A stretch of DNA of 38,104 bases from a virus: UHGV virus genome UHGV-0241771; one strand, 5' to 3'. Within the stretch, counting starts at the first letter, position 1, and each line of letters starts with the position of its first letter. Shown piece by piece: positions 16,201 through 31,147 of this stretch. The translations under genes and the position numbers were made by a program. The notes below the pieces were generated by a model that searched no databases, had not been told where the DNA came from, and saw only the letters and a list, made by a program, of their open reading frames with translations.

Positions 16201-17027
16201 TGCTGGAGCGGGTGGATATGAAGGGGAATGCGATTTCCGCGGCTATTTTGTACGATGCGGTTTACCGGAAGATGAAGCGTGAGACGCCGGACGCTACGGA
16301 GGCCGAGCTTGACGCGGCCGCCATGGCGGAGGTGCGGCGCTCCCTGTCCCGCAAGGGTCAGCCGATGACGCAGCTGCAGAAGTCCCTGGCCGCGCAGCAC
16401 CGGACCTGGATGCAGGCGGGGATGTTGTTCCTGGGCGGCGAGTCAATCAATACGATGGGCAATGTGTTTTCCCTGGCCCGCAGCGGGCAATGGGGGAAGG
16501 CCGGGTTGATGTGGGTTTCTCACGGGATGGTGCTGGCCCTTCTGAATGGACTGCTTAATTTCATGACCGATGACGAGAAGCGCCGCCGGAAGCGGGAGTG
16601 GTGGCACGCCCTGTTTGATGTGGTGATGGGGCCCGTGATGGGGATTCCTGTAGTAAGCGGGCTGGCTGGTGAGGGCGTGAGGCAGCTTGCGAAGCTGTGC
16701 GGGTATCATGCTTTTATGCCGGGGAATAATTTGCTGGTGCCGTTTTCTAATGCGGCGGATATCGGGAAGGCGTTTTCCAACGCCTGGAAGTTGTTTGACG
16801 GCAAGGAACGGCCCTGGGAGGATGACGCCCTTTCTTTCCACGAGCTTTTACGCACCGCAGCAGCGGGGACGGTGGCTTTTTCTCCACGGACAACCAAGGG
16901 GGGCGCCGCTGCTGTAGGAGCCGCCCTGACGATGGCGCTTCTGCTGAATGTGACGGAGTTTGCCCTTAAAACAGTCCGCAGCGTTCAGGAGAACGGTGCG
17001 GACTGGGATAAGTGGGTCGGAAGATGA
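7242..17027 (+). CDS. Giant 3261-aa polyvalent virion protein (gp16 position) with ParB-like nuclease, ADP-ribosyltransferase-like and HExxH zincin modules plus C-terminal membrane helices
   Basis: Single uninterrupted 9.8-kb ORF. DGALQVISGRHRFNA at ~10.54 kb is a ParB/Srx GxxR motif. VVYHGSPHVFTVFDVE at ~12.24 kb resembles the PARP/diphtheria-class H-G-S ART motif. LDTILHEVQHVIQGYEG is at ~13.1 kb. Hydrophobic helices at 16.40-16.69 kb and 16.89-16.95 kb. Confidence 0.8.
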   Translation: MFAQDVFERLGLSQDMDLLKELQKEALSEPTEAAQSPYMDDPAYAGFETLRGLFGSNHGDNPSMYWLAQGKEMPEFATVADAQAAVWKDFQKKARAYQAEQERQQQAREALAATIDPFIDRYVRGDTVVPSPEQVMMMQEAGISWESVRRARRGMQLVREYDAQGTLYDDRIINNLAEQVGDDELARRIVLNMFYNDARKYAKDKHGDEWTGIDWIDKAAQGVTGMVRTGGVKGWRTGQKAWRNLQVMGEVDAVTNAAKRLPELIASGMDVDEARAQIEKDATFLEIRRRWAADLVETMEAGEKEYLEGEDRHLVGRIGSQLGSIIGDTAPWFIPAIGPAIGASSAMQSRRDEGVSIGLTMEETEKRAMMFGQADALEEMIAFSPIGRLTPGYKWLKKALGGGKAAGKLAPWRARWMASPKAQYAIQGLSGAAEEAIFEPTAGYLMRTVQSMNLTDERGKQTFRQYLDDMGQMMHGEQGLALLAFTFGMSGFNYPQIKKAAQEFGLSLQHYKELGGTVQGYLEAREEKTAEGFLNKALSHLHDSWMEDPQASMERASAAAGERLSGERIESLRELDAWRAAEDAGMVPRVEPAEQEGMFRVYAPARGTEAPREDASVSGEGQEEGAPSYTLMDGEQMTAYLQAFVDADMEHAIVGAQHLLAGDVTVGQALAQGRFDAAEVITRTVTDEQTGAERVVIAPETLGQMKARADMAMAAIRALEAEGVSYEEAAARMDASLSEHIPLGILVQTWEESQERIRTEQARNLEFKAPAMDAPFSNAYVTKVRRGDTFRRVLRYARGNATVEDLMEETMEQAVISWQAEQGLSWDEFGAMLQEAQRVMIELFPEARGEEMQFIHLDAGKPVTGHDAIEAFSKIGRSRWLADAVRSTSLPSWLRNLLNHLVRFLGYFKARVELGEMVRQAEEQGVFSLPVRQALAVMLDAGNALYRDQQGDLMELSMERARAQAGLDAMFGAGVATEARTLEDELAESKAQDEERRQEAEDEARAPENSPEAQEARREREQARVEALGEPDGSGVFNGAFIEVQEGVRQGFIEKSRLTLCPDVPQFKQGADEQTGVVNPIVGAWQRNAAPISVWRRKDGALQVISGRHRFNACTDEDINCTVYDEAAGFDLDWAQTHDVENNIRDGQASLFEIARYVSRKRLTKEEAVERGIFRKGQSRRGVELGLYGCSDLLDALGNELVSPDDAWRVAMAFRNQNEVQRAGLRALMEGKSWQAALAVMQVAANMDRIRGLAEAAGMTFETDLFGNSHAEEYFSRLAQYAAARVSELTREISSISGASRRPETARKYGVDVRDAAALEAVVKDLKAQRAQWQNFGLHEELIKEANDAVMVELGMKTQEEVDRENGVLPLEAPEQEAGSADTGMLQLSQDVSRMLDAALTRGAAPAEDEAPAANFSLMSISSGDVVSSAAGMRARLKPLQGKVFVNKNTGIQAVIEARVSGKTVGKAGASQMSVANLKTLGFSAEEARRVHYTAATRIHELFENAEDGFFEEAYKQDASKAGAYHFFNTVDIEGIGAFDVNVTAIKYVKEQEGNVLYTLELTIENPATRGAASREGRLPTPFKDGVSTRNLSSYRSFVEKEKAAVRKKAESDGTFMKAPNGKDTNLTEDQWLSVRTEAFKSWFGDWEHDPSNASKVVDENGEPLVVYHGSPHVFTVFDVERSGENFNRSREDGGLLFFSSLPETAEDVLYDLEGRFPGTGLESARLYACFMRLRRPFMLDLGDASQRPFSGEGVPENVKGSPMAWYLFPHELRRGFDEGNAHGAGYDGVVLKGKNAYDGSPEVWGMATDSRQVKSAVDNRGTFDSDSPDITFSIIGEKAESFQEYHNNGLSYTDPADGKRKAIIDSRGVRLRKEHVSVSEGGHVNVSLAAALDFPELFRAYPELRRLRVDFYRDSGSGTGGFTDPQEHYIAVNVARGGKNAAPGMVLDTILHEVQHVIQGYEGFAQGAGSMSREQALAYLGGSMSQLAGRGDDWAKAALPRLERMKRELEAGTLQPAFVYVFSHGEQEARLAGTFEKNSEGVLMSGLNGFRLLDAPQFSIPLTGDITELGGITFGAGRFGRMAGRVLAPNGDWLYDEMVFRMRAATQRSVSKLRLFETGDRERGLELLAEAQELISTVERYLPNSYGFGLEPYKIWLNVFSLLYGNSGKMAPGDAVASALEAIPMRRWPEIMEGSIGKSFVNWAEKRPELEDVVVEARREIAERQADYELDSAPDADNRAALAARKGVEQEVWRRLFEEHGAEFLEEYGEQKVFRLVGKFMERVVEQIDRFRKDRTLGRIRRVAASVAPRTSPQGKPMRGKMDAESYRRLERCLRLLEMTESQYDEFFQKNFPEDAEEGKRWEDLAPDALVLVTLPDAEGRLEEVAVTQREFEVYACYERMDVNTAEKCGAALGELIATSRHAWENAAEKKKLEVAAMAAPLLQATGDLDDSRMATFRRKARLRALPKNPLSLFDYLMNFNQYMQALSSVEPFAGVARQFEERAARFNVQRQASEKEMLRFVHHTVAEIAGSADRYDIAEWIYEGRMKQDTGISVVEREPYWNRKANALYRERLLHLLRRKVKSHGLEAVQLYLREFKLSEGLKKEVDALFGHRRKDISAKQAKKALEHMERVFTQKEWERYGDQNVFVRERAEMLRSRTKYAKEGYQPKSFRLDGLSRMEAAYLVLLSEQADYTEALAERGFDAEVMDRLRGFAGDEVMRFAYALREKLNERSGQVQEMTERRYGSPFPLTENYFRAFFDVTMEAIDKSIADAASYGEAATGGKFGLIHARRKHQAHLDLEMDVCTAFMAAMTEQDLYLYGSEISRDLRALLNFKGEDGEAGRSLEVLLGRDAVGKLMAWADAFDRAGAESIRGHLDMNRLMNRLSGAAARVLLAGRVGTLTKQVTTVINAMYASDEIGLAEWLGAVRRYHAGKLVKPVREIEVLPELDSRDKTRFSATLAAMGADEAGRRVSRLERWNREGMDLLERVDMKGNAISAAILYDAVYRKMKRETPDATEAELDAAAMAEVRRSLSRKGQPMTQLQKSLAAQHRTWMQAGMLFLGGESINTMGNVFSLARSGQWGKAGLMWVSHGMVLALLNGLLNFMTDDEKRRRKREWWHALFDVVMGPVMGIPVVSGLAGEGVRQLAKLCGYHAFMPGNNLLVPFSNAADIGKAFSNAWKLFDGKERPWEDDALSFHELLRTAAAGTVAFSPRTTKGGAAAVGAALTMALLLNVTEFALKTVRSVQENGADWDKWVGR

Positions 17028-17199: not shown

Positions 17200-17236
17200 C
17201 GTCTGCCTTATGGTAAGGCCGACGTCTATTTTTATA
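17200..17236 (+). terminator. Intrinsic terminator between the convergent giant gene and the DUF3800-like gene
   Basis: Hairpin cgtctgcctta-tgg-taaggccgacg (10/11 bp) followed by TCTATTTTTAT. Confidence 0.5.
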
Positions 17237-18059
17237 CCCTTTTTCTGGGGGGATAAGAAATCCGCGTAACTCCAGATGATGTCTGTTTACGCACGCCTGA
17301 ATGTTGTTTTTTAACAGGTCCCCCAATCCAGCGCAGGGTGTTATGAATTCTACCGGAGTTGTCTTTCCACGAATAAAAGCAGTTTTCCAGTTGGGAGTAG
17401 AGTGGCATGATCGGAGCAAATTCCGCAACTCTCAATCCAATGATGGTAGTGACAATGTCTGCTATTTGGATACCTATGTTTTTAGCTTGAGATATGGCAA
17501 ACATAGGTATTTCAAGAATAGAGGACCTCATCTGACTACCAGGAGCGCTTTTGACAAGGAAATTGGTAATGGCAGCTGCATTCCTACCGTTTGTTCCATC
17601 ATCCCGGTTGTCAATAATGATGATGGCTTTTCTCCCATAATGTTCCCGCTTCATATAGATGTTGATACGTTCACAGAGACTTTTGAATGTAGCATCAAGA
17701 ACACCAGTGTCCTTGCAAGAAAAACTTTGCATGGCTTGGTCAAAACAGACACACCCAAATACCGTAATTTTACTTTTTTTTAGGAATTGGAGAATGGATT
17801 CAATGAGTTTGACGTTAGTTGAACCTTCTGGGTACATCTCGTGTTGTTTGAAGGAGGTTCGAGATAAAAGATTTTTTCCCTTCAGTTCAGAGTTGTCCGC
17901 GTAGTCTTTTCCAAGATGTTGAAGTTTTAATTTATAGATGGTATTGGCAATTTTTGTGTAGTCTCCAATAGGGATAGCTACCCCGCACATAGCTCCAAAT
18001 TTATGTTTTTCTCCCCCTCTATCCAGTTCTCTAAATGTTTCATCCAAGAAAATCAACAT
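17232..18059 (-). CDS. DUF3800-like protein, predicted acidic-triad nuclease (moron)
   Basis: N-terminal MLIFLDETF (xFxDES-like), AIIIIDNRDDG and IQIADIV acidic motifs. Convergent with the structural operon. Own divergent promoter region. Confidence 0.5.
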   Translation of the reverse strand: MLIFLDETFRELDRGGEKHKFGAMCGVAIPIGDYTKIANTIYKLKLQHLGKDYADNSELKGKNLLSRTSFKQHEMYPEGSTNVKLIESILQFLKKSKITVFGCVCFDQAMQSFSCKDTGVLDATFKSLCERINIYMKREHYGRKAIIIIDNRDDGTNGRNAAAITNFLVKSAPGSQMRSSILEIPMFAISQAKNIGIQIADIVTTIIGLRVAEFAPIMPLYSQLENCFYSWKDNSGRIHNTLRWIGGPVKKQHSGVRKQTSSGVTRISYPPRKRV

Positions 18060-18357
18060 ACCAATTATTTATGTGTTTTATATACCTAAAGTCCCGACTT
18101 TCTAAATGGGCGTCACATTCCTTTGCAAGGCGGCGACAACGGATGAAAAACTAAATGAAAAAGGGTACAACCTCAAGGAAATATTGCACAACTATTTTTG
18201 TGATATACTATATATTGTGGCATTATCCTTGATTTCAAGGAATATTTTTATTGTCTTGCGTGATTTTTTTGTCTAGTACTTGGCTTCATGTTCGTCCGAC
18301 TGGTTGTCAAATACTTGAGGACTTGAGTTTTTGAGGATATAGGAATACCTTGGAGAA

Positions 18358-19050
18358 ATGAAAGGTTTACTGATTGCCATTTGCGTTTTCCTGGGGCTGG
18401 CATTGTTGCCGATGCCCTACGGCTATTATATGTTCCTGCGGTTGGCTGTGTGTGCTTACGCCATATTTGTGTTTACCCAGGAGCAGAAGAAAGGGGTGTG
18501 TTTCGGGAGCGTATCCGCTGCCGCTATTGCTCTGCTTTACAATCCCGTCTTCCGGGTGCATTTGGAGAAGGAGGTCTGGATGTGGGTGAATGTAATAACC
18601 ATATTATTATTCATCATTGTCTCGTTGCCATGGAGAGAGTTTGCAGAGACAAGAAGAGAACGAACAAGGAAACTTAAAGAGGAAGCAGAGAAAAGGAATG
18701 AGGAAAAATTTTATGGAGTGTATTATAAATATTTTAAAAGTAATTTTCTTCTTCCGAATTACTGTGTAAGATGTAAAGAAACTATAGACATATCTACAAG
18801 CAAAGATTTATTATGTCCTTTTTGTTATCAAAAAGTTCAAGAATTTATAGAGCAAGAAGAGAATGAATTTACGAAGACGGGAAATCTTCCCATGAAATTG
18901 AATTTCAAATGTAAACATTGTGGGGCGGAAGAAAGAACAAGATCGTTTACATTTGGATTTTGCAAACCATGTTATTGGTCTCTTTGCGAACTTGAGTCAA
19001 TCGCGAAGAAAGATTTAAAAGGCTATGAGCGATATAAAAAAACATGCTAG
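18358..19050 (+). CDS. Membrane protein with 3 N-terminal TM helices and C-terminal double zinc ribbon (4x CxxC)
   Basis: CVRC...CPFC and CKHC...CKPC motifs. Lys/Glu-rich linker. N-terminal TM region is GC-rich (about 18358-18650) and the rest AT-rich (possible chimera). Confidence 0.45.
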   Translation: MKGLLIAICVFLGLALLPMPYGYYMFLRLAVCAYAIFVFTQEQKKGVCFGSVSAAAIALLYNPVFRVHLEKEVWMWVNVITILLFIIVSLPWREFAETRRERTRKLKEEAEKRNEEKFYGVYYKYFKSNFLLPNYCVRCKETIDISTSKDLLCPFCYQKVQEFIEQEENEFTKTGNLPMKLNFKCKHCGAEERTRSFTFGFCKPCYWSLCELESIAKKDLKGYERYKKTC

Positions 19051-19266
19051 CTATAAAAAAAGCAAGAACGGATAAAGAAAAAATCTATTGGCGGCCAGCA
19101 TGAAAATAATACTAACAGGAAGCTCTACCAATTGGGTTAGCCATTCATGAAAAGTTTATATAACAGATAGTTTTTTAATTTTTATTATTTTATATTTTAT
19201 TATAACGATTATTACTGCACTATATCTGACAACAACTGTTATAAGATAATTACTACAAAAGACGAT

Positions 19267-19743
19267 TTACAAAACCGCATAAATACAACCAACAATTGTT
19301 ATAATAGGAGCAAACCAAACTACCAGACCACCAGCTAGATATGATGCTCTATGACTAAATGTTCCATATAAAGCAATCCCTAATGATGTATCATAACTTC
19401 CATACATTTGTTTAGTTGCTTGATAGATACCGTTTGAAATAGATAGAGCATAAGTCATGATTAGTAACATAATTGGAATAAGTTCTAGACCTGAATAAAA
19501 GTATATCGCTGCAACATAAAACGAACTGATATAAAGAAGTATACTAATACTTGCTATGAACACTTGAAGACCGGGAGCCTTTTGTCCAAATACATACGCA
19601 TTGATAAGTTCCGGTATAGAGAGTATGAGATTCGCTATAGGCAACACAGCCAAGAGAATGAAGATGATAGCAGGTACATAGAGGCCGATGCAGAATGCCC
19701 AGATAAGTCCAACGAGTGAAATAGGGAGAAGAATAAGGATCAT
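19267..19743 (-). CDS. Polytopic membrane protein (158 aa, 4-5 TM)
   Basis: Last gene of the minus-strand operon 20800->19267. Very hydrophobic and AT-rich. Confidence 0.45.
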   Translation of the reverse strand: MILILLPISLVGLIWAFCIGLYVPAIIFILLAVLPIANLILSIPELINAYVFGQKAPGLQVFIASISILLYISSFYVAAIYFYSGLELIPIMLLIMTYALSISNGIYQATKQMYGSYDTSLGIALYGTFSHRASYLAGGLVVWFAPIITIVGCIYAVL

Positions 19744-19767
19744 AGTTTTAAATTGCGCTGATTTTGT

Positions 19768-20055
19768 TTATTTTGCCCCGCCACAAATCTTGCAGTTCAC
19801 ACCGCTGGGTGTATCGCTGGCTCGCCCTTTGCAAGCCCGGTAGTACCGGCAACCTTTGTTATGGGTCTTGCCCGTTGAGCTGATCCAGTACGCTTTTTCT
19901 TCCGCTGTTGGCTTGGCTGCCGGTTTCCGGTGGTAGTGGTATTCCCCTGTTTTGCGGTTGTAGTGACCGCCGTTGGCGTCCAGGCCGCCAGGGTGTGCGC
20001 CTGCAAGGGGAGTGAGAGAGATGAGTATTAAGGGAAGGAGTGAGGTTATTTTCAT
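19768..20055 (-). CDS. Secreted YHYH-motif protein with Cys-rich C-terminus
   Basis: Signal peptide MKITSLLPLILISLTPLAGA. GGHYNRKTGEYHYH motif. C-terminal CRYYRACKG...CKICGG. Confidence 0.5.
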   Translation of the reverse strand: MKITSLLPLILISLTPLAGAHPGGLDANGGHYNRKTGEYHYHRKPAAKPTAEEKAYWISSTGKTHNKGCRYYRACKGRASDTPSGVNCKICGGAK

Positions 20056-20435
20056 GGCATTTTGAGATAGATATGGGTTGCATCCAGTTTCCAGGCTCCA
20101 TCACTTGCCAGACCGACGGCAGGCAATAGAAGGAGACATCCGCCCACTGCGTCAAGGATGCCTGTGGTTGAAATGCTGTAGTCAATAGCGGCGCAAGCGG
20201 TGCGGTTTCCTTTGGTGGCCGTAATGGCGTGACTTTCTCCTTTGGAGAGTTGCACTGTGGCCTGTCCCTGCCCCAAATAAACGCCGTCCGCACGAATTTC
20301 CGCGTCTTTTTCCGAGGCCGTGATGGTGACGGGCTGCTTTCCTTTAACAAGGAGAGAGCATGAGGATAGAAGAGGGAGGGTAACGGTCAGAAGAGCGACC
20401 GTTACCCAAGAGAGCAGTCTCTGTTGAGAGAACAT
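20052..20435 (-). CDS. Lipoprotein (127 aa)
   Basis: Lipobox LLSSC after a hydrophobic h-region. 4-bp overlap with the downstream gene. Confidence 0.45.
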   Translation of the reverse strand: MFSQQRLLSWVTVALLTVTLPLLSSCSLLVKGKQPVTITASEKDAEIRADGVYLGQGQATVQLSKGESHAITATKGNRTACAAIDYSISTTGILDAVGGCLLLLPAVGLASDGAWKLDATHIYLKMP

Positions 20436-20443
20436 GAGAGGGT

Positions 20444-20800
20444 TTAATTTTTTCTCATGATGGGGTCACCTTCCGCGACGAAGGATTCCTGCCCGTAAAT
20501 GAAGGGTATGTAAAACCATTTCCGTTCAAGCGTAGCATTGGAGAGACCAACACAGTTTGGACCGTTTTTTTCAATGGCGTTATCAATGGCTTCTTTCATG
20601 TCAGGAATGCCTGTTGGGAAGAAGATGATGATATGTTTTTTGTCTTCCCCTTTAGAACGAACGTTGTAAGTGGTGGTATACCCGGCGGTGTGCTTCAGGT
20701 CCATGTTTTTGGTGGAGGCGACGGTGAGGTCCGCCACACGGGTGGTGCACGAGACGGCCAGGAGAACGGAGCCAGCTAACAGCAAGTGTTTTATCTTCAT
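20444..20800 (-). CDS. Lipoprotein (118 aa)
   Basis: Signal peptide with lipobox LAVSC. First gene of the operon. AT-rich promoter region 20801-20925. Confidence 0.45.
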   Translation of the reverse strand: MKIKHLLLAGSVLLAVSCTTRVADLTVASTKNMDLKHTAGYTTTYNVRSKGEDKKHIIIFFPTGIPDMKEAIDNAIEKNGPNCVGLSNATLERKWFYIPFIYGQESFVAEGDPIMRKN

Positions 20801-20925
20801 ATTTATACAGTTTGAGATGTTTCAGTTCTGCATGCAATATGTTTTCATAAGATATATATGTTATGCTTGTTACGTCTGCATTTTCTATTTTCCTAACAAA
20901 TAATGTATATTTTTGTAGGGAGTGG

Positions 20926-20961
20926 TAATAAAAAAAGCCCCCTGGCCGGAGGCCAAGGGGC
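20926..20961 (-). terminator. Intrinsic terminator (minus strand)
   Basis: Hairpin gccccctggcc-gga-ggccaaggggc (10/11 bp) flanked by an A7 run on the plus strand (a T-run on the minus strand). Confidence 0.45.
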
Positions 20962-21085
20962 GAAGTGTTCTAACGTAAAGAGGCCAAACGATAGCCTCTC
21001 TTCTCAGAAAAAACAACTCCTAAATCATTGTTTCAGTATTATTATGTAAAAATGCGTACTGGAATTGTTATGAAGGGGCTGTATC

Positions 21086-21119
21086 CAACAAAAGGAGCTG
21101 CCCCGATAGAGGCAGCTCC
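21086..21119 (-). terminator. Intrinsic terminator just downstream of hicA (minus strand)
   Basis: Perfect 9-bp stem ggagctgcc/ggcagctcc with an 8-nt loop, followed on the minus strand by TTTTGTT. Lies 22 bp after the hicA stop. Confidence 0.55.
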
Positions 21120-21140
21120 TGAATATAGTAAAGGGAGGTG

Positions 21141-21467
21141 TTAATCTTCCCAGGTTCCACCTGCAGCTTCAATAGCATCCCGTACCTGAGCTGTAAGATA
21201 GTGGGGGGCATTGTCATTATCGTGGCCCGGGATAGTCACCGTCTGGCCATGAGGATGATCGTATACACGATGGGAACCCCGTCCTTGTCCTTGCTGCAGG
21301 ATGAATCCGGCATTTCGTAAGCGTCTAATCAGATCTCGTATTCGCATAAGTGATGTTGAAGATACGAGAAGAGAGGAGAGTTTCAATGGACGCTGTCCGA
21401 ATGGAAGAATCAGCCTTTTTAATAGTCTAGATTGCTCGAAAGAAATGATTACCCTTTGTTTATTCAA
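21141..21467 (-). CDS. hicA: HicA-family mRNA-interferase toxin; conserved domain begins at internal Met (21347); the long ORF start overlaps the DUF2971 stop as ATGA
   Basis: LIRRLRNAGFILQQGQGRGSHRVYDHPHGQTVTIPGH matches the HicA pattern (G.GSH....hP....vtiP.H). No HicB-like ORF (RNase H-like fold plus DNA-binding domain) on either side. Confidence 0.65.
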   Translation of the reverse strand: MNKQRVIISFEQSRLLKRLILPFGQRPLKLSSLLVSSTSLMRIRDLIRRLRNAGFILQQGQGRGSHRVYDHPHGQTVTIPGHDNDNAPHYLTAQVRDAIEAAGGTWED

Positions 21468-22441
21468 ATTATTTTACCAGGAATCAGAACAAGACCATTA
21501 TCTGCTGTTTTTTTAGGAAGGAGCTTTCTATATGGAAAGCTTTCCACAGGAGTATCATGAAATACTTCATTTTCTATTTTGGAGTAATTAGGAGATATAT
21601 AAGAATTTACTATTTTTATTTCTGGTTTTTCAATATTTTCTAATTGTAATTGCTTGTACCATTCTTGAACGTAGTGAACATTATGCGGGAACCTGACTCC
21701 AAGGACAATTCCAGATAGATATTGCAATATTTCTGAAAAAAATATATTCCCTTCATCATCCGTTGATGATGCATGTTTGATTGAACATAATAGACGCATC
21801 TCTTCTTCAAAGGACCAAGATTTATCCTTTGTTATCATTAAATCTTCTATGAATTTTGGATTAAATTTTGGATTAAAAAAAGGAAATTCATTAGGTAAAA
21901 CAACTCTATCTTCCTTATATAAAACATTATATAAGCAGTTATGTAAAAAATCTTCATGTAATTTTTCTATTCTCCAATGATTGTGATATGGCTCGTTGTG
22001 CGGTGTTACAGGTAATGAGAAAACCAGACACACTCCTTTATGCTTATCTGCGTAATGTCCCCACATCGCAGCAGATGATACGGATCTTGAAAAACAAATT
22101 ACTTGATGAGAGGAATGTTTAGTATCATCGTTATATCTTATTCCGGACGGCAAAAATTCAAAAATATCATTTGTTCTATAAGGATTTGTTCCTTTTATGC
22201 GCCATTCTCTGAGTATTTTTTTCGCAATTTCCCAAGACTGATAAATATAAAGGTCAACAACTTTGGGATTCATAAATTGCAATAAAGTTTCTTCATGTTC
22301 TCTAGAAGGAGCTTCCCCGTCTTCCACCCATTTATCTACGTCCTCATCTGAAAGACAAAAATTATGGGCTATCCACTTTTTATCTCTATTTGAGAATTTT
22401 AACCATTCTTTTATTTTTTCAGAATATGCAGAATTAACCAT
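21464..22441 (-). CDS. DUF2971-like protein (325 aa), cI-operon moron
   Basis: AAMWGHYADKHKGVCLVF matches the DUF2971 signature as I recall it. Low GC. Stop overlaps the hicA long-ORF start codon (ATGA). Confidence 0.55.
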   Translation of the reverse strand: MVNSAYSEKIKEWLKFSNRDKKWIAHNFCLSDEDVDKWVEDGEAPSREHEETLLQFMNPKVVDLYIYQSWEIAKKILREWRIKGTNPYRTNDIFEFLPSGIRYNDDTKHSSHQVICFSRSVSSAAMWGHYADKHKGVCLVFSLPVTPHNEPYHNHWRIEKLHEDFLHNCLYNVLYKEDRVVLPNEFPFFNPKFNPKFIEDLMITKDKSWSFEEEMRLLCSIKHASSTDDEGNIFFSEILQYLSGIVLGVRFPHNVHYVQEWYKQLQLENIEKPEIKIVNSYISPNYSKIENEVFHDTPVESFPYRKLLPKKTADNGLVLIPGKII

Positions 22442-22557
22442 GACTGTTTTTGAAAAAAATTAAATAATAAAAATTATTCTTTTTTAGTCGATATTTTATT
22501 GATGAAAACAAATACAATATCAATATATTTTATATGTTATTGTTCCATTCTTTTGAA

Positions 22558-23370
22558 TCAAGCTTTCTCCCACCTGTCCAGGGTTTCTACGTATAGAGCG
22601 GAGATTTTGCCGCCGTCCATCGGTTCGATGTCTCCGAAGGCAGGGTTGATGGGATGGAGGGTGTATTCCATTTTGCCGGTTTCCGGGTTTTTCCTGCAGA
22701 CCAGTTTTTTGAGCGTCACGCCGCGTTCATCATGGTATTGAACAATGGTTCCGGGTTTGGGGATGGGGGGGATGGTGTATTTTTTCATGATGACTACGGA
22801 GCCGTCCGGAATGGAAGGTTCCATAGAGTGGCCGTTCACGCGCAGCAGGTATTCTCCTTTTTCCAGTTCACGGTATAGCCGGATGTCCTGCGGGATGGTG
22901 TCTCCATCCGCCAGGTTGCCGGCGGCAATGTTGCCGATGATTTGTCCCTGGGCTTCCAAGGGGGGGGCTGTGAATGTTTTTACCGGGGTAAACTGTTTGT
23001 GGACTGCTTCCGCTTTCCTTTTCTGATGTGCCTTGGCTGTGACTTGAAGGATATGGGAAACCATATCCTCTATAGTTTTTTTTGCTTCATCCGCCATGGC
23101 GCGGAGTTGCTTTTCAAAGTCTGGCGGAAGCTCAAACTCAATTTCTTCCTCCCCTGACATCAGTTTTTCAATGAGTTCCATTTTTTGAGGGACGATCGGC
23201 TTGCCAGCGGAAAGCCAGTTATCAACTGTTCGCTTACTGACTAGCGTTTTTTCAGCTAACCACGCGCGGTCTCTCCCTATCTTTTTGAGCCACGTTTTGA
23301 TGTCTTCTGCATTAAGCATGTCAGCATTATGCACCAGAAGCGCATTAAGAGCAATAGAAATATTTATCAT
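22558..23370 (-). CDS. CI-like prophage repressor (N-terminal HTH, C-terminal S24 LexA-like peptidase)
   Basis: HTH segment DIKTWLKKIGRDRAWLAEKTLVSKRTVDNWLS. S24 motifs VNGHSMEP (Ser) and VTLKKL (Lys). ATG at 23370 (TTG alternative at 23382). Divergent from the cro-like gene. Confidence 0.8.
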   Translation of the reverse strand: MINISIALNALLVHNADMLNAEDIKTWLKKIGRDRAWLAEKTLVSKRTVDNWLSAGKPIVPQKMELIEKLMSGEEEIEFELPPDFEKQLRAMADEAKKTIEDMVSHILQVTAKAHQKRKAEAVHKQFTPVKTFTAPPLEAQGQIIGNIAAGNLADGDTIPQDIRLYRELEKGEYLLRVNGHSMEPSIPDGSVVIMKKYTIPPIPKPGTIVQYHDERGVTLKKLVCRKNPETGKMEYTLHPINPAFGDIEPMDGGKISALYVETLDRWEKA

Positions 23371-23455
23371 CGATACACCCAAAACGAAAAATAATATTGA
23401 CTAGATTTCGTCTCTGGTGCATTTTAAGGCTATCAACAGAACGCAAGACGCGAAT
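23371..23455. promoter_or_regulatory. Divergent cI/cro-type switch region with sigma70-like TTGACT -35 (23397..23402)
   Basis: 85-bp AT-rich region between divergent starts. TTGACT, a 17-18 bp spacer, then ATTTTA precede the + strand gene. Confidence 0.4.
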
Positions 23456-23641
23456 ATGATCATCGACCTGAAAAAAGAAACGCAAGAAGTTCGGGAGTGG
23501 TTCCGGGATGCGCAGGCCGCTACAGGCTTGAGCGGCCGGGCTCTCGTTATCGGTGCCATCATGGATTTCCGCCAGAAGGCAAAAGAACGTACTCTCCAAC
23601 CTCGAAAAAAGAACCCCGAACCCAAGAAGCCGGCAGCATGA
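23456..23641 (+). CDS. Cro-like small regulator (61 aa; alternative GTG start 23417)
   Basis: First gene divergent from cI. Basic C-terminus. Stop overlaps the next start (ATGA). Confidence 0.4.
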   Translation: MIIDLKKETQEVREWFRDAQAATGLSGRALVIGAIMDFRQKAKERTLQPRKKNPEPKKPAA

Positions 23642-24174
23642 AAACAGAAGATTTAGTCGTCCGGATAGAGTTTCTTAATAGCAAACGGGGAGAGTCTAAA
23701 GATACGCCATGTATTGGGGTGAATGCGGATGGTGCCAACATCGACCAGGAATCCTTTGTTTACGAGACAGCGGACGCTTTTGTCCGCAGGGTCGAGTTCA
23801 AGCTCGGCGCTCTGGGATTGAACAAAGGAGAGAAGCCTTTTCTTCTCGTCTTTGGGGAGACTTTGGAAGATACGTTCGTTCCTTTTCTCTGCGGCACGGT
23901 TGGAAGAAAGCTGGAGAAGATTGCCGCCGAGCTTCCCCATGATGCGCACCAGGATAATGGAAACACTAAGCAGGAAGATGATATATGCGACGTGGTTGTG
24001 CTGGTTTGTCCACTCGGAGATGCCAAGTGGTATCAGAAGTTTCTCTGGGGTGATGAGGTAAATCCCGCTGGCACAAGCAAGTACGCAGTCCGTGTGTTTG
24101 ATGGCGAGCGTTTTAAGGAGCTCCGCGAGTGGGCCAAACGTGGCGATTTCCATAGACGGGATTTTACCCGATAA
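23638..24174 (+). CDS. Hypothetical early protein (178 aa)
   Basis: ATGA coupling to the cro-like gene. Natural-looking codon usage. Preferred over the fully overlapping minus ORF 23653..24153. Confidence 0.45.
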   Translation: MKTEDLVVRIEFLNSKRGESKDTPCIGVNADGANIDQESFVYETADAFVRRVEFKLGALGLNKGEKPFLLVFGETLEDTFVPFLCGTVGRKLEKIAAELPHDAHQDNGNTKQEDDICDVVVLVCPLGDAKWYQKFLWGDEVNPAGTSKYAVRVFDGERFKELREWAKRGDFHRRDFTR

Positions 24175-24197
24175 CCCTAATTATTTCAAACCTAACA

Positions 24198-24464
24198 ATG
24201 ATGATGAATACGAATACAGAATTACCGAGGAATGCTCGGATGTTGACCAAGGAAGAAGCAGATGACTGGGACAAGAGCTGTTCCGCTTTCGGCCCCATTT
24301 TCCTCGAAGTAGATGGGGAAATACGCGAGTTTGAAAGAATAAGTTCCTGTCCTTCCCCTGTTCTGGGGAAAGGTTTCCTGGTATTGGCTGTCTCTTGCCC
24401 CGAATGGGGGAAAGAGAAACTAGTGATTGTTGCCAGATGTAAAGAAGGAAAGGAGGTAGTTTGA
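24198..24464 (+). CDS. Hypothetical small protein (88 aa)
   Basis: Same orientation as the early operon. No domain recognised. Confidence 0.35.
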   Translation: MMMNTNTELPRNARMLTKEEADDWDKSCSAFGPIFLEVDGEIREFERISSCPSPVLGKGFLVLAVSCPEWGKEKLVIVARCKEGKEVV

Positions 24465-26873: not shown

Positions 26874-28055
26874 ATGGATACGTTATCGACTTATGATCCC
26901 CGCCAGGGGCTGCCCTCCGCCTCCGCATTTGGCCGGCTGGCGCTGTGTCCCGGCTCTTTTACCTTAGAGCAGTCTTGCCCGGATGAAATTTCCGCCGCGG
27001 CGAACGAAGGAACCTTGCTGCACGCCTATATGGAACAGTTGCTGACCGGGGAACCCTGGGAAGGCGCCCCCTTGACTGCGGAACAGGTGGAACTTTGCGA
27101 ACGCGCCATGCGTATGTTGGACGGGGTGAAAGAGATGATTGAGAGAGATCATCCCGGCGCCGTGTTTTATCTGATCTCCACGGAACAAAGAGTGTTTTAC
27201 CGCAACCTGTTCGGGACTGCGTACTATTCCGGACAGTGGGACGCCTTGTTTGAAGTGAATTGCCCCGATGCCGGCTTCATGCTGGTGGCGGACTGGAAAT
27301 TTGGCCGTGTGGAGGTGGATTCCGCCGAGGCCAATCGCCAGCTTGAGGCCCTTGTCCCTTTGGTGGCCCAAAAGGAGCAGAATGACAACGTCATTCATCA
27401 AGGCATTTACGCCGCTGTTATCCAGCCGCGGGTAGCCGGTCCCGCATCCGTGGCATTTTATGATACCGAAGCGATTGACCAGGCCGAACAACGTTCTCTC
27501 GCCGTCGCCAAGGCGGCTATGGCCCCGGACGCCCCGCGCTATTGCAGCGAGGAAGCTTGCCGGTATTGCCGGGCCAAGGCTGTGTGTCACGAGGCAGCGG
27601 CCCTGGTGGAGCAGGCGTCTTTGATTACTACGGAGAGGGATAAGTGGGAGTTGTTTTCCCCTGCCGAGAAGGTGAAGGCTTACCGCCTGGCGAAGACGGC
27701 AAAGAAATGGGCGGCGGCTGTGGATTACCGGTTTGAACAGGATGTGGCCGCCGGCCTGATTCCCGGTTTTGAGATGGCGCCCGGACGCACCAGTTTCACG
27801 GTAACGGATCCTTCCGGGGCGTTTTCCGCGTTGAATGCCGTGTTCCCGGACGAGGTGACGGCGGAAGCGTTTGCCGGATGCTGCAAAGTCGGCATCACGG
27901 AACTGGACAGACTGGTGCACGCGGTCCGTAAAGCGGCGGATCCGAAGGCGACCACGAAGGCCAGCCGCGAATGGCTGCGGCAGTTGCTGGCGAAGTATGG
28001 CGAATCGAAAACCACGAAGGGTTCCGTGAAGGAAGTGGAAGGAGGTGCGGCATGA
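26874..28055 (+). CDS. PD-(D/E)xK family exonuclease with Cas4-like cysteine cluster (partner of RecT)
   Basis: FMLVADWKFGRVEV...QLEALV (D...E.K-like motif). Cys at LCPGSF plus C-terminal CSEEACRYCRAKAVC. Operon position next to RecT. Confidence 0.55.
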   Translation: MDTLSTYDPRQGLPSASAFGRLALCPGSFTLEQSCPDEISAAANEGTLLHAYMEQLLTGEPWEGAPLTAEQVELCERAMRMLDGVKEMIERDHPGAVFYLISTEQRVFYRNLFGTAYYSGQWDALFEVNCPDAGFMLVADWKFGRVEVDSAEANRQLEALVPLVAQKEQNDNVIHQGIYAAVIQPRVAGPASVAFYDTEAIDQAEQRSLAVAKAAMAPDAPRYCSEEACRYCRAKAVCHEAAALVEQASLITTERDKWELFSPAEKVKAYRLAKTAKKWAAAVDYRFEQDVAAGLIPGFEMAPGRTSFTVTDPSGAFSALNAVFPDEVTAEAFAGCCKVGITELDRLVHAVRKAADPKATTKASREWLRQLLAKYGESKTTKGSVKEVEGGAA

Positions 28056-28441
28056 TGACTACATTGACCATTACCTTGCCCCACACGCCGCGCTGCCTGT
28101 CCCCGAATGCGAAGGCCCCTCTCACTCCGAGGGGGGCCATTGTGGCAAACAAGAAGAAGGTGTCTGCCAAACAACGTGCCCGGACGATGGCGTGGGCAAT
28201 CACTTGGGAAGCCCTGAAAGGACAGAAGTTTGTACCCACTCACTACCGGGTAATCTGGTATTTCAAGGGAGACCCGCCCGATGATGATAATGTCCTGACG
28301 CGCTGTAAATATTATAAGGACGGAGCGTGCAAGGCCATGAAGATTGACGACGGCCCCCTGCGTTGCCTGGGGATTGACCGCGTACATGATCTTACCCGCG
28401 CCGGACAGGTGGAAATCGTGTTTGAAAGGAGGGAGCAATGA
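28052..28441 (+). CDS. rusA: RusA Holliday-junction resolvase
   Basis: GGAGG SD. TLTITLPHTP... DDDN ... DDGPL pattern parallels E. coli RusA ITLPWPPS ... DLDN ... DDAQV. Confidence 0.8.
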   Translation: MMTTLTITLPHTPRCLSPNAKAPLTPRGAIVANKKKVSAKQRARTMAWAITWEALKGQKFVPTHYRVIWYFKGDPPDDDNVLTRCKYYKDGACKAMKIDDGPLRCLGIDRVHDLTRAGQVEIVFERREQ

Positions 28442-30132
28442 ACCTCCTGTACATTGACCTGTTTTGCGGAGCCGGTGGAGTGACGACGGGCATTTCTCAG
28501 GTTCCCGGTGTACATGTCGTGGCCTGTGTGAACCACGATGCCGATGCGATTGCCTCCCATGCCGCCAACCACCCGCGCACCCTCCATTACACCGAGGACA
28601 TCAGGACGCTGGACACCGCGCCAATGGTTTCCCGGCTGGAAACGATGCGGGCACGGTACCCGTGGGCAAAAACCGTCCTTTGGGCCTCCTGCGAATGTAC
28701 CAATTTCAGTAGGGCGAAGGGAGGAAAGCCGCGCGATCCTGACAGTAGAAGCCTCGCAGAGCACCTTTACCGTTACATTGAAGCTCTTGAACCGGACTAC
28801 ATCCAGATTGAAAATGTGACCGAATTCCTCGAATGGGGGCCGTTAATTGAACAGGACGGTCAACTGATGCCGGATCCCGACCGGAAAGGAGACTCTTTCC
28901 GCGAGTGGTTTTCCCACATTGAAGGGATGGGCTACAAGGGCGGTTGGCGCATCTTCAATTCCGCCGACTTCGGGGCGTACACCTCCCGAACCCGCTTGTT
29001 CATCCAATTCGCCCGGACAGGCTTTGCCCTGGCATGGCCGAAGCCGTTCCTCCGGCGTGAAAACTGGAAAGCGTGCCGTGAAGTTCTGGACCTGAACGAT
29101 TTTGGTAAATCCATTTTCACAAGGAAGAAACCCCTTTGCGACAATACGCTGCGGCGGCTCACGGAGGGAATCAGGAAGTTTGCAAATCCTCAATTCGTCT
29201 TCCGCTACATGACCGGCCCGGGGCATGTACACTCCCCGGAGAAACCATGCGTTACCCTGTGTACGCAGAAGAACCTGTACCTGGCAGCCGGGAAGTTCAT
29301 GACCAGATACTTTTCCGGCAAGGGGCACAACACTTCTCTTGACGGCCCCTGCGGAACACTGACAACCATTCCCCACCAGTACCCCGTTACGGTGACTTTC
29401 ATGGACAATTACTTCGGCAACGGCTATCCGACCTCCATCGACGAACCGTGCGGAACTCTCTGCACCAAGCAGCAACGGTTCCCGGTCACGGCAATCTTCC
29501 TGGCAAACTACTATTCCGGAGGCGGCCAGCTTACCAGCACGGAATCCCCGTGCCCGACGCTGACGACCACCCCCAAGCCCCGAGTGGTCCGCTGCCAGTT
29601 CCTGGACCAGCAATACAGCCAGAGCGGCCCGGCATCCCTGGATTGTCCGTTTCCCACCATCACGACCAACCTCCACCACGGGGTTGTCACGGCATCCTAC
29701 ATCCGCGCCATGATGCGCCCCAAGGCCAAGGGACTTGTCCATTCCGTGGACGAACCCATGAAGACCCTGCTGACGAGGGATTATTTTTACCTGGACACCT
29801 GCCGTTATTCCTACATGGGATGCCCGATTTACAACCAGCCCGCGCCCGGAGACACGAAAGCCATGCTTGAACTCAAGGCGGCCATGCGGGAACGGGGGAT
29901 TTCCGACATCTACATGCGCCCGATCAGCGTCCGGGAAAGTCTGCGGATTATGGGATTCCCCGAGGACTACCGTCTTTACGGCACGCAGACCCAGCAGCGG
30001 AAATGGATTGGAAATGCCGTTGAGGTGAAAATGGCCCGGAACATGGCCCAGGCATTGGCCGATTCCATGCCCGGTGCTGTGGAAGTCCACGGTAGGCAAA
30101 TGGCTTTTGAATTCAGAAAGGAGGCAAGTTGA
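28438..30132 (+). CDS. Orphan DNA (cytosine-5) methyltransferase with enlarged target-recognition region containing five tandem ~33-aa repeats
   Basis: Motif I DLFCGAGG, motif VI IQIENV, motif VIII SRTRLF, motif X IGNAV. The catalytic region reads SCEC instead of the canonical PCQ. Repeats xPCxTLTT x5 at 29221-29740. No restriction-endonuclease gene adjacent. Confidence 0.75.
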   Translation: MNLLYIDLFCGAGGVTTGISQVPGVHVVACVNHDADAIASHAANHPRTLHYTEDIRTLDTAPMVSRLETMRARYPWAKTVLWASCECTNFSRAKGGKPRDPDSRSLAEHLYRYIEALEPDYIQIENVTEFLEWGPLIEQDGQLMPDPDRKGDSFREWFSHIEGMGYKGGWRIFNSADFGAYTSRTRLFIQFARTGFALAWPKPFLRRENWKACREVLDLNDFGKSIFTRKKPLCDNTLRRLTEGIRKFANPQFVFRYMTGPGHVHSPEKPCVTLCTQKNLYLAAGKFMTRYFSGKGHNTSLDGPCGTLTTIPHQYPVTVTFMDNYFGNGYPTSIDEPCGTLCTKQQRFPVTAIFLANYYSGGGQLTSTESPCPTLTTTPKPRVVRCQFLDQQYSQSGPASLDCPFPTITTNLHHGVVTASYIRAMMRPKAKGLVHSVDEPMKTLLTRDYFYLDTCRYSYMGCPIYNQPAPGDTKAMLELKAAMRERGISDIYMRPISVRESLRIMGFPEDYRLYGTQTQQRKWIGNAVEVKMARNMAQALADSMPGAVEVHGRQMAFEFRKEAS

Positions 30133-30133
30133 T

Positions 30134-31147
30134 ATGCCAACACGATTGATCAGAGATGCTATTTTGACATCAGGGCGCGTCGCCTCCCTTTCGTGGGAAG
30201 CGGAGGTGTTCTACCGACGCCTGATGTCTGTGGCAGACGATTACGGCCTTTATGACGCCAGGACGCCTATTCTCCGTTCTGCGCTGTATCCTCTCCAACT
30301 CGACAAGATGAGCGAGTGCAATATTCAACGCTGCCTCTCCGCGTGTGAGGCCGCGGGGCTTATTCTGCTTTATTCTCACAATGAGAAGCCATACTTGATG
30401 ATTCTGGGGTTCGACCAGCAGGGGAAGTCCATGCCCAAATGGCCGCTTCCGAACGGTTACGAAGTGCTGAAAGTTTCCGACAAGAAGTACGAACTGCGGA
30501 AATTCGTAACAGGTCGTAACGATTCGCCTCAACCCGTTACTTATGCGAATGCGTATTCGGATGCGAATGCGAAGACGAATAAACAAGAAAATAATGCAGG
30601 GGGAGATAACACGGTGGTTTTTAGCGAGCCGCCCACTGATCCTGCCTCCCCTATCCCGAACCGGGAACGCTTGAACGACGTCCGGGGGATGCGCTGCGCC
30701 GACAACCATGCAGACCTGGGATCTTCTCCCGGTGCTGCCCGGTTTGTGGTTGCCACCCTTGCAATCAACCCATCCTGGTCCCGGACTTTGCCAACCGCCC
30801 TTGAGCAGGCCGCCGCGCTTGAGGCTTACCGGTCCGCGCAGGGGCGGGTGACGCCGCGGGATATGGAGATGCTCAAGGCTTACTACGCCAGCGGCTTGAC
30901 GCATGACCGGAGCAATAAGGCTTTTTGGCGTCCGGACAGCCGTAAAAAGTTTTGGGAGTGCTTCGGCGACGTTTTGACGCATGCCGACAGGTGGGCTAAG
31001 GAGACGCGTTGGAAGCCCGTCTCCGCCCGCAAGAAACCGAAACTCGAAGAACCACGGCAGCCGGAAGGGCCCGTTGTGGATACCGACACGGCGGCGAAAG
31101 AACTGCGAGAATGGAGACAAGAATTAGGATTGGGAGGTGAGGCATGA
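30134..31147 (+). CDS. Phage replication initiation/organizer protein (wHTH N-terminal domain)
   Basis: AGGAGG SD. The N-terminus (FYRRLMSVADDYGLYDARTPILRSALYPL...AAGLILLY) resembles DnaD/Lin1244-like N-terminal domains of phage replication proteins. Low-complexity linker encoded by a GCGAATGCG DNA repeat. Confidence 0.4.
   Translation: MPTRLIRDAILTSGRVASLSWEAEVFYRRLMSVADDYGLYDARTPILRSALYPLQLDKMSECNIQRCLSACEAAGLILLYSHNEKPYLMILGFDQQGKSMPKWPLPNGYEVLKVSDKKYELRKFVTGRNDSPQPVTYANAYSDANAKTNKQENNAGGDNTVVFSEPPTDPASPIPNRERLNDVRGMRCADNHADLGSSPGAARFVVATLAINPSWSRTLPTALEQAAALEAYRSAQGRVTPRDMEMLKAYYASGLTHDRSNKAFWRPDSRKKFWECFGDVLTHADRWAKETRWKPVSARKKPKLEEPRQPEGPVVDTDTAAKELREWRQELGLGGEA

Follow-up and report, generated by a model that had tools for sequence, protein, structure and literature searches.

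The window analysed here, a stretch of 38,104 nucleotides (nt) from the virus genome UHGV-0241771, contains at positions 28438..30132 (+ strand) a complete gene for an orphan C5-cytosine DNA methyltransferase of 564 amino acids (aa). Between motifs VIII and IX, the protein carries a tandem array of short units. Do these units act as separate target-recognition domains (TRDs) that enable a single catalytic core to methylate several DNA sequences? An earlier interpretation of the letters alone (in the following, the sequence-only reading) had described the gene product as an orphan methyltransferase with five TRD-like repeats.

The methyltransferase and its six tandem units

The entry in the open reading frame (ORF) list and the matches in two databases identify the gene. 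The protein corresponds to PF00145 of Pfam (C-5 cytosine DNA methylase; 3e-30, match at aa 6-194) and to phrog_116 of PHROGs ('DNA methyltransferase'; 6e-74, aa 1-552). With 94.7 bits, the score for the NCBIfam dcm model TIGR00675 lies just under the cut-off of 100.65, because the array of approximately 200 aa interrupts the model. More than 8000 homologues were found in a protein search. Query coverage is 80% or more for 83 phage records, and the homologue P0001, which is 97% identical, is the cluster representative for 93 member sequences. The family of phage and prophage cytosine methylases to which the gene belongs is very large and routinely annotated, and the gene is an ordinary representative. 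The claim of an orphan C5-methyltransferase was borne out by PF00145 and phrog_116 and by the setting of the gene in a phage replication and recombination module.

The array consists of six units of approximately 33 aa, which span aa 254-457 (nt 29197-29808). The prolines that anchor the unit cores are located at positions 270, 304, 337, 371, 404, and 440, corresponding to a period of 33-36 aa. Each unit was scored with a profile hidden Markov model (HMM) of the other five, and 2000 shuffles of the region served as the null. On the + strand, unit A (RYMTGPGHVHSPEKPCVTLCTQKNLYLAAGKFMT; aa 254-287, 29197..29298) reached 26.7 bits compared to a null maximum of 6.5, and unit B (RYFSGKGHNTSLDGPCGTLTTIPHQYPVTVTFMD; aa 288-321, 29299..29400) 42.3 bits compared to 7.1. 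The values were 34.2 and 9.2 bits for unit C (NYFGNGYPTSIDEPCGTLCTKQQRFPVTAIFLA; aa 322-354, 29401..29499), and 26.4 and 8.8 bits for unit D (NYYSGGGQLTSTESPCPTLTTTPKPRVVRCQFLD; aa 355-388, 29500..29601). Unit E (QQYSQSGPASLDCPFPTITTNLHHGVVTASYIRAM; aa 389-423, 29602..29706) yielded 11.5 bits at a null maximum of 7.8, and unit F (MRPKAKGLVHSVDEPMKTLLTRDYFYLDTCRYSY; aa 424-457, 29707..29808) 14.7 bits at a null maximum of 8.5. The scores of the six units are thus in the range of 11.5-42.3 bits, and the best of the 2000 shuffles scored 9.2 bits. The repeats are therefore above chance. All five cores quoted in the sequence-only reading are present; a sixth unit (DEPMKTLLTRDYFYL) had been missed, and the extent given for the repeats, nt 29221-29740, was too narrow.

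Within the protein, the identity between units is 16-53%. Tandem Repeats Finder detected no nucleotide-level tandem repeat in the DNA of the region, which indicates that the unit duplications are old. For the same reason, a recent duplication or an assembly artefact was rejected as the source of the repeats.

Gain, loss and conservation of units across the family

Two alignments were used for comparison with homologues: the broad alignment A1 with 78 sequences, and the alignment A2 of 27 sequences, which comprises 26 close homologues at 59-97% identity. In A2, whole units are absent as clean in-register gaps. Unit B is missing in this manner in 12 of the 26 homologues, among them P0007, P0010, and P0015, unit D in P0011, P0014, and P0027, unit E in P0015, P0019, P0020, P0023, and P0027, and unit F in P0014, P0017, and P0022. 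P0026 and P0029 contain one B-like unit where A and B stand, P0027 possesses an additional unit behind F, and in P0025 three units are deleted in register. Of the six units, C has been kept most widely: 25 of the 26 close homologues align with it, and all 26 align with its core. Its residues P337, G339, C342, T343, and P349 are invariant in A2. The natural loss of units in register shows only that they are dispensable. P0018 (477 aa, 98% identical) was rejected as a case of recent unit loss because it is a frameshifted copy. Past aa 349, P0018 follows another frame of the same DNA (window ORF 29448-29870, +), which points to a pseudogene or an assembly error.

The counts of units and motifs in homologues given here and below refer to 120 homologues among the matches listed. 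The array is present in all of them, with three to nine units per protein and five as the commonest number. When 1.84 billion representative proteins were searched with the unit profile, 2087 clusters were matched at E<=0.001. A single protein contains up to 12 matched stretches, and each of the ten top matches that were checked is a PF00145 protein. The array family is found in phages of Bacteroidota, Verrucomicrobiota, Proteobacteria, Actinobacteria, and Cyanobacteria. Bacillus phage phi105 (H117, KY197768.1 29227-30534) encodes a homologue with 43% identity to the RcapNL enzyme of the Proteobacterial-phage array type; the family thus occurs in Bacillus phages too, beside the SPbeta-type multispecific enzymes. 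Two of the proteins matched by the repeat profile, P0224 (973 aa) and P0265 (933 aa), contain an intein (Hint, LAGLIDADG, and intein-splicing domains) within the N-terminal catalytic domain.

Clustering of 606 units from 121 proteins resulted in about 12 types, which are combined in 32 distinct architectures. Type D occurs in the clade of the query as well as in that of the Bacteroidales, and repeated types such as 'AA' or 'AAA' occur within single proteins. Each unit comprises 27 match columns, of which Gly3, Ser9, Pro13, Thr16, and Thr19 are common to most or all types. Conservation within a type combined with differences between types characterizes columns 6-8 and 20-24. Two type-specific segments are thus located on either side of a T-L strand with the sequence S-x-(D/E)-x-P-x-x-T-(L/V/I)-x-T.

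Between the query and its orthologues, identity is 63-85% for the units (mean of 76% for unit A), compared to 78% for the N-terminal and 71% for the C-terminal catalytic part. In the true linker at aa 458-486, identity among the orthologues is 60%. The orthologous units are about as conserved as the catalytic parts, and the array is therefore no loose spacer. To judge from this conservation, the units are functional and not junk. Distant phages of the Proteobacterial-phage clade even share 75-82% identity in some units, compared to 52-61% in the catalytic domain; other units are not shared.

Known enzymes and alternative readings of the array

The layout of the units resembles that of a known recognition element. 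M.HhaI and M.HaeIII read their target through recognition loops 1 and 2, located on either side of a conserved T-L dipeptide (PMC2790894), and the units follow the same order of loop 1, T-L, and loop 2. The query shares with these two enzymes the catalytic fold and the motifs I, VI, VIII, IX, and X. In contrast, M.HhaI and M.HaeIII possess a single TRD, the canonical P-C-Q, and a partner restriction enzyme. No match between the array and their small domains was detectable by sequence profile.

Independent function of several TRDs has been proven for enzymes of Bacillus phages. Like the query, M.SPRI, M.Phi3TI, M.Rho11sI, M.H2I, and M.SPBetaI as well as M.BceSV are orphan phage enzymes that combine one core with several tandem T-L segments. 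These Bacillus enzymes confer protection against many restriction enzymes. Moreover, the TRDs of the Bacillus-phage enzymes differ between related phages, as do the units of the array. The variable regions of M.SPRI, M.Rho11sI, M.H2I, and M.Phi3TI contain cores such as RVYSPDGVSPTLTT, QVYNSNGLSPTLTT, and DEPAFTVNTIDRHGVA. The Bacillus-phage enzymes have a canonical PCQ and irregular TRDs, whereas the query family is characterized by regular units of 33-36 aa, up to 12 in number, with a shared framework. The query core is 23% identical to M.SPRI (221 aa, E 1e-4), whereas the enzymes of SPR, phi3T, rho11s, and H2 are 58-98% identical to M.SPRI across the N-terminal half. Due to this low identity and a different type of motif IV, the query is placed outside the SPbeta group. 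It may work like the multispecific enzymes of that group. For the prophage enzyme BCE_0393 (M.BceSV), seven specificities were reported (PMC3459991). The concept of multiple TRDs is itself classical for Bacillus phages: a review from 2025 describes several TRDs per polypeptide in these phages and orphan methyltransferases as an anti-restriction strategy of phages (PMC12707154).

The relatives closest to the query in architecture for which assays are available are enzymes of Proteobacterial phages, which were studied by Dziewit, Radlinska and co-workers. ARM81mr_p29 and ARM81ld_p31 of Aeromonas phages match the query directly, with 27% identity at about 95% query coverage. ARM81mr_p29 contains five units at aa 337, 372, 405, 438, and 471 (period 33-35 aa), and Pyei1_p05 at least eight. 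In both proteins the T-L unit array is located between motifs VIII and IX, as in the query. The genes of this ARM81/Paracoccus type are likewise orphans within phage replication modules. They differ from the query in their origin from Proteobacterial phages, in the identity of only about 27%, and in other unit types (e.g. 'GYGERxGQ'). The two ARM81 enzymes are cited as 5-methylcytosine methyltransferases with relaxed specificity (PMC5537653). Two prophage enzymes of Paracoccus aminophilus, JCM7686_0772 and JCM7686_2655, share 69% identity with Pyei1_p05 (PMC6536676). They protect DNA, if only in part, against 16 of the 28 restriction enzymes tested. The affected sites include AGCT, GGCC, CCWGG, CCGG, GCGC, and ACGT; twelve sites, among them CGCG, GATC, GGNNCC, and CCATGG, are unprotected (PMC3925955 supplement 8). 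This pattern is in keeping with relaxed specificity no less than with discrete multispecificity. The literature examined on the Aeromonas and Paracoccus relatives does not mention the repeats and makes no link between them and specificity.

It is plausible to assume that the query is a multispecific anti-restriction enzyme. In the specific form that we tentatively favour, the six units are alternative mini-TRDs on one catalytic core, which would direct methylation to several target motifs and provide broad protection against restriction. The orphan methyltransferase would be produced by a temperate phage related to Akkermansia phages, its gene being transcribed together with recombination and replication genes. 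The six units would share the single catalytic core, each serving as an alternative mini-TRD and possibly conferring one specificity. The enzyme would thereby methylate several distinct short sequences, and phage DNA would exit the cell pre-protected against many Type II restriction enzymes of the hosts. Specificities would be gained or lost when units recombine in register.

A more far-reaching form of this proposal, which concerns the family as a whole, is doubtful. Here, the 33-aa units would be the smallest self-contained DNA target-recognition modules of methyltransferases known, and would constitute a combinatorial cassette system in which recombination re-programs the anti-restriction spectrum stepwise. 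Of the 3-12 'beads on a string', the one that happens to dock would read the DNA for the single core. A regular, recombining array of 33-aa units with this layout appears to be undescribed in the literature searched, and searches for tandem or multiple TRDs outside Bacillus phages retrieved nothing relevant. A paper on Proxi-RIMS-seq2 likewise makes no mention of the family.

Several observations weigh against the units as alternative mini-TRDs. The sequence-only reading had named modelling as a means of recognizing a mere structural linker. In two AlphaFold2 runs, with A1 and A2, the array (aa 250-448) reached a predicted local distance difference test (pLDDT) value of only approximately 25. 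There is thus no structural support for TRD-like folding of the array or for its docking to the core. Such values may reflect flexible beads on a string, or simply an uninformative repeat alignment. A search of all PDB sequences with the unit profile gave nothing significant, the sole match being due to chance (E 2.1). The 'vYxxxGxSPTLTT' cores of the four Bacillus enzymes align in register with the repeat HMM, though at low scores of 3-5 bits. In hhalign, the unit profile and the Bacillus TRD cores were aligned in register over 21 columns (probability 70%, E 4e-5), with Bacillus segments that had been hand-picked around the T-L motif. As a motif-level resemblance to the Bacillus-phage cores, the designation of the repeats as TRD-like is supported, and this resemblance speaks for the mini-TRDs. 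The TRDs of Bacillus enzymes reportedly comprise roughly 38-50 aa (Trautner et al. 1996) and are longer than the units of 33-36 aa. Furthermore, the assayed relatives are remote from the query, and none belongs to the Akkermansia/Bacteroidales clade. Their published protection patterns are partial and broad and do not show discrete specificities. Finally, the retention and invariance of unit C, the highest of all units, would fit one true TRD accompanied by accessory repeats.

The partial and broad protection leads to an explanation that is possible, if rather unlikely in our view, namely that the enzyme is of relaxed specificity. The array would then form a single extended DNA-binding module, and methylation of a very short or degenerate context (e.g. 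CC or GC) would be incomplete; the number of units would tune affinity or processivity and not the list of targets. Protection by the Paracoccus enzymes is indeed partial at all 16 affected restriction enzymes, and the copy number of units is continuous from 3 to 12. Duplicate types such as 'AA' and 'AAA' would be pointless if one type equalled one specificity. However, discrete types with type-specific flanks are needless for a generic binding module, and some types are more conserved between distant phages than the catalytic domain. In addition, twelve sites are wholly unprotected by the Paracoccus enzymes, which indicates that an enzyme of this type is not simply non-specific.

A monospecific enzyme is less probable still. 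According to this explanation, one unit, either C or the last one ahead of motif IX, is the working TRD, and the others are padding or provide a surface for protein-protein or replisome contacts; the non-TRD units would possibly be tied to the place of the gene in a replication module. This agrees with the exceptional retention of unit C and its five invariant residues, and unit F is the sole unit modelled with moderate AlphaFold confidence (pLDDT of approximately 60 in the A1 run). Moreover, authors working on the relatives proposed a connection of these methyltransferases with replication or segregation (PMC5537653). Unit F, however, is absent in P0014, P0017, and P0022 and is therefore not an essential TRD. 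The dispensable units are conserved like the catalytic core and keep the P-x-x-T-L-T-T strand, which contacts DNA in known TRDs, and the relatives protect against many unrelated sites.

Catalytic motifs, genomic setting and implications

The catalytic core was modelled with confidence in both AlphaFold2 runs (pLDDT of approximately 90 in the A1 run). A Foldseek search with the modelled core retrieved PDB entry 3g7u, M.HaeIII, M.HhaI, and DNMT1 at about 1e-11, which corresponds to the class I methyltransferase fold. Among solved structures, the putative methyltransferase 3g7u from the E. coli prophage CP-933R is the best match to the N-terminal catalytic half (phmmer 2.5e-14, Foldseek 6e-12). 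It is prophage-encoded too; unlike the query, it comprises 376 aa, has a canonical PPCQ, and lacks a repeat array.

All conserved motifs are encoded on the + strand. Motif I, FCGAGG (aa 9-14, 28462..28479), which is assigned to binding of S-adenosylmethionine, and motif VI, ENV (aa 125-127, 28810..28818), are invariant in A1 and A2. In motif VIII, SRTRLF (aa 183-188, 28984..29001), the residues R184, R186, and F188 are invariant in A1. Motif X, GNAV (aa 525-528, 30010..30021), contains G525 and N526, which do not vary in either alignment. These four motifs had been called canonical before, and each was located in the translation at the quoted sequence. The motif IX region, MRPISVRESLRIMGFPEDY (aa 493-511, 29914..29970), was aligned to motif IX of 3g7u, DNMT1, and M.HaeIII, and includes RESLRIMGFP at aa 498-508.

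Motif IV is represented by the variant WASCECTNFS (aa 82-91, 28681..28710), which aligns to IGGPPCQGFS of 3g7u. The predicted catalytic cysteine is C87 (28696-28698), which corresponds to the Cys of PPCQGFS in 3g7u and DNMT1. In the HMMER alignment to 3g7u, E86 occupies the position of the canonical Pro and T88 that of the canonical Gln; E86-C87-T88 thus replaces P-C-Q. The sequence-only reading had noted a deviation at this site. The exchange is not Ser for Pro, which resulted from a misalignment, but Glu for Pro. Nor is 'SCEC' an oddity of this gene. Across the 78 sequences of A1, W82, A83, S84, E86, C87, T88, N89, F90, and S91 are invariant. The listed homologues contain S-x-E-C-T-N-F-S without exception, in the form of SLECTNFS (90), SCECTNFS (29), or SVECTNFS (1); C85 marks the variable position, which is Leu in most homologues. 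The inspected relatives from Proteobacterial phages read SPDC[KT]HFS, for example ASPDCKHFS in Pyei1_p05. The ARM81/Paracoccus type (SPDCKHFS) and the query (SCECTNFS) hence both contain an acidic residue ahead of the Cys. Based on the aligned sequences, this acidic residue is a hallmark of the family, with S-x-(D/E)-C-x-x-F-S as the form of motif IV.

To our knowledge, P-C is nearly universal among characterised C5-methyltransferases, a fact that speaks for an inactive, degenerate enzyme in which the loss of Pro-Cys kills catalysis and a non-enzymatic role in DNA binding remains. The TIGR00675 score below the cut-off points in the same direction, as does the related enzyme Phi2LM21_p23, which showed no activity in E. 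coli (PMC5537653). This explanation is highly improbable, because none of the 78 homologues departs from residues E86-S91 or from the other catalytic motifs, the interruption of the NCBIfam model by the array explains the low score, the ARM81 enzymes with the equivalent D-C motif are reported as active (PMC5537653), and the tested Paracoccus enzymes, whose 69% relative Pyei1_p05 reads SPDCKHFS, are active as well. A degenerate active site was accordingly rejected on account of the family-wide invariance of the motif, and the query is predicted to be enzymatically active.

The gene is located inside an operon. A Shine-Dalgarno sequence, AGGAGG (28427..28432, +), was read from the sequence six bases 5' of the ATG. 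The stop codon of an upstream ORF of 156 aa (27971..28441, +; from the ORF list and the sequence) overlaps this ATG (ATGA), which suggests translational coupling. The replication-initiator gene (30134..31147, +; phrog_5810, phrog_1408, and phrog_2149, 'replication initiation protein') starts one base past the stop of the methylase gene, and hence belongs to the same operon. The 5' neighbours are genes for a RecT-like protein and for a DUF2800/PD-(D/E)XK exonuclease, followed by the 156-aa ORF, which has no match in Pfam or PHROGs. On the 3' side, the replication initiator is accompanied by a winged-helix (wHTH) protein and the small terminase subunit. No restriction endonuclease was found among these neighbours, and the methylase is therefore an orphan; the lack of an adjacent cognate endonuclease had been stated previously and agrees with the annotation of recombination genes 5' and replication and terminase genes 3'. 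The DUF2800/PD-(D/E)XK protein (26874-28055) was rejected as a cognate endonuclease, since it matches 'exonuclease' phrog_69 and adjoins the RecT-like gene. These two proteins thus form a recombination pair.

Akkermansia phage DTMo-2021a is a relative, with flanks that are 81-87% identical to those of the window. Synteny ends four bases into the methylase gene (28442) and restarts at 30661 inside the replication-initiator gene. The corresponding slot in DTMo-2021a (L095 4060-6564) contains other small ORFs, including one for a class I S-adenosylmethionine-dependent methyltransferase of 168 aa, and no homologue of the methylase gene was found in this phage. The position of the gene looks like that of an exchangeable 'methylase cassette'. 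The orthologue P0010 resides in an integrated prophage next to an integrase. In the two closest named phages, Bacteroides phage BS-TP2 (L078 5788-6282) and Porphyromonas phage phage025a_SJD11 (L079 3492-3965), a second methyltransferase gene of approximately 160 aa adjoins the array-type C5-methylase; no such small partner is recognisable beside the gene in the window.

Two further regions of the window are conspicuous. Positions 17200-24200 have a GC content of 38-44%, compared to 55-60% elsewhere, and are encoded mainly on the minus strand. The proteins of this region (DUF3800, DUF6804, DUF2971, and an S24-peptidase repressor similar to LexA/CI) indicate that it is probably a lysogeny or accessory (moron) region. 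Positions 7242-17027 (+) are occupied by a single ORF of 3261 aa, which is very large for a phage of approximately 38 kb and may encode a tail or host-interaction protein.

If the enzyme were merely relaxed in its specificity, it would be one further orphan anti-restriction methylase. If, however, each unit functions as a mini-TRD of its own, a deletion series for assigning motifs to unit types would already exist in nature, in the form of the many variants distinguished by single units. Such an assignment might result in a recognition code for C5-methyltransferases and in compact modules for programmable cytosine methylation. Multispecific prophage enzymes have already served for the pre-methylation of transformation DNA in Bacillus (PMC3459991), and the query could be used in the same way for gut bacteria that are hard to engineer. 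Multispecificity would also account for the passage of temperate Akkermansia and Bacteroidales phages through the dense restriction barriers of their hosts. Should the units indeed form a cassette system, multispecific cytosine methylation would be a general strategy of phages and not a curiosity of Bacillus phages, and the family would offer a natural code that relates units to motifs.

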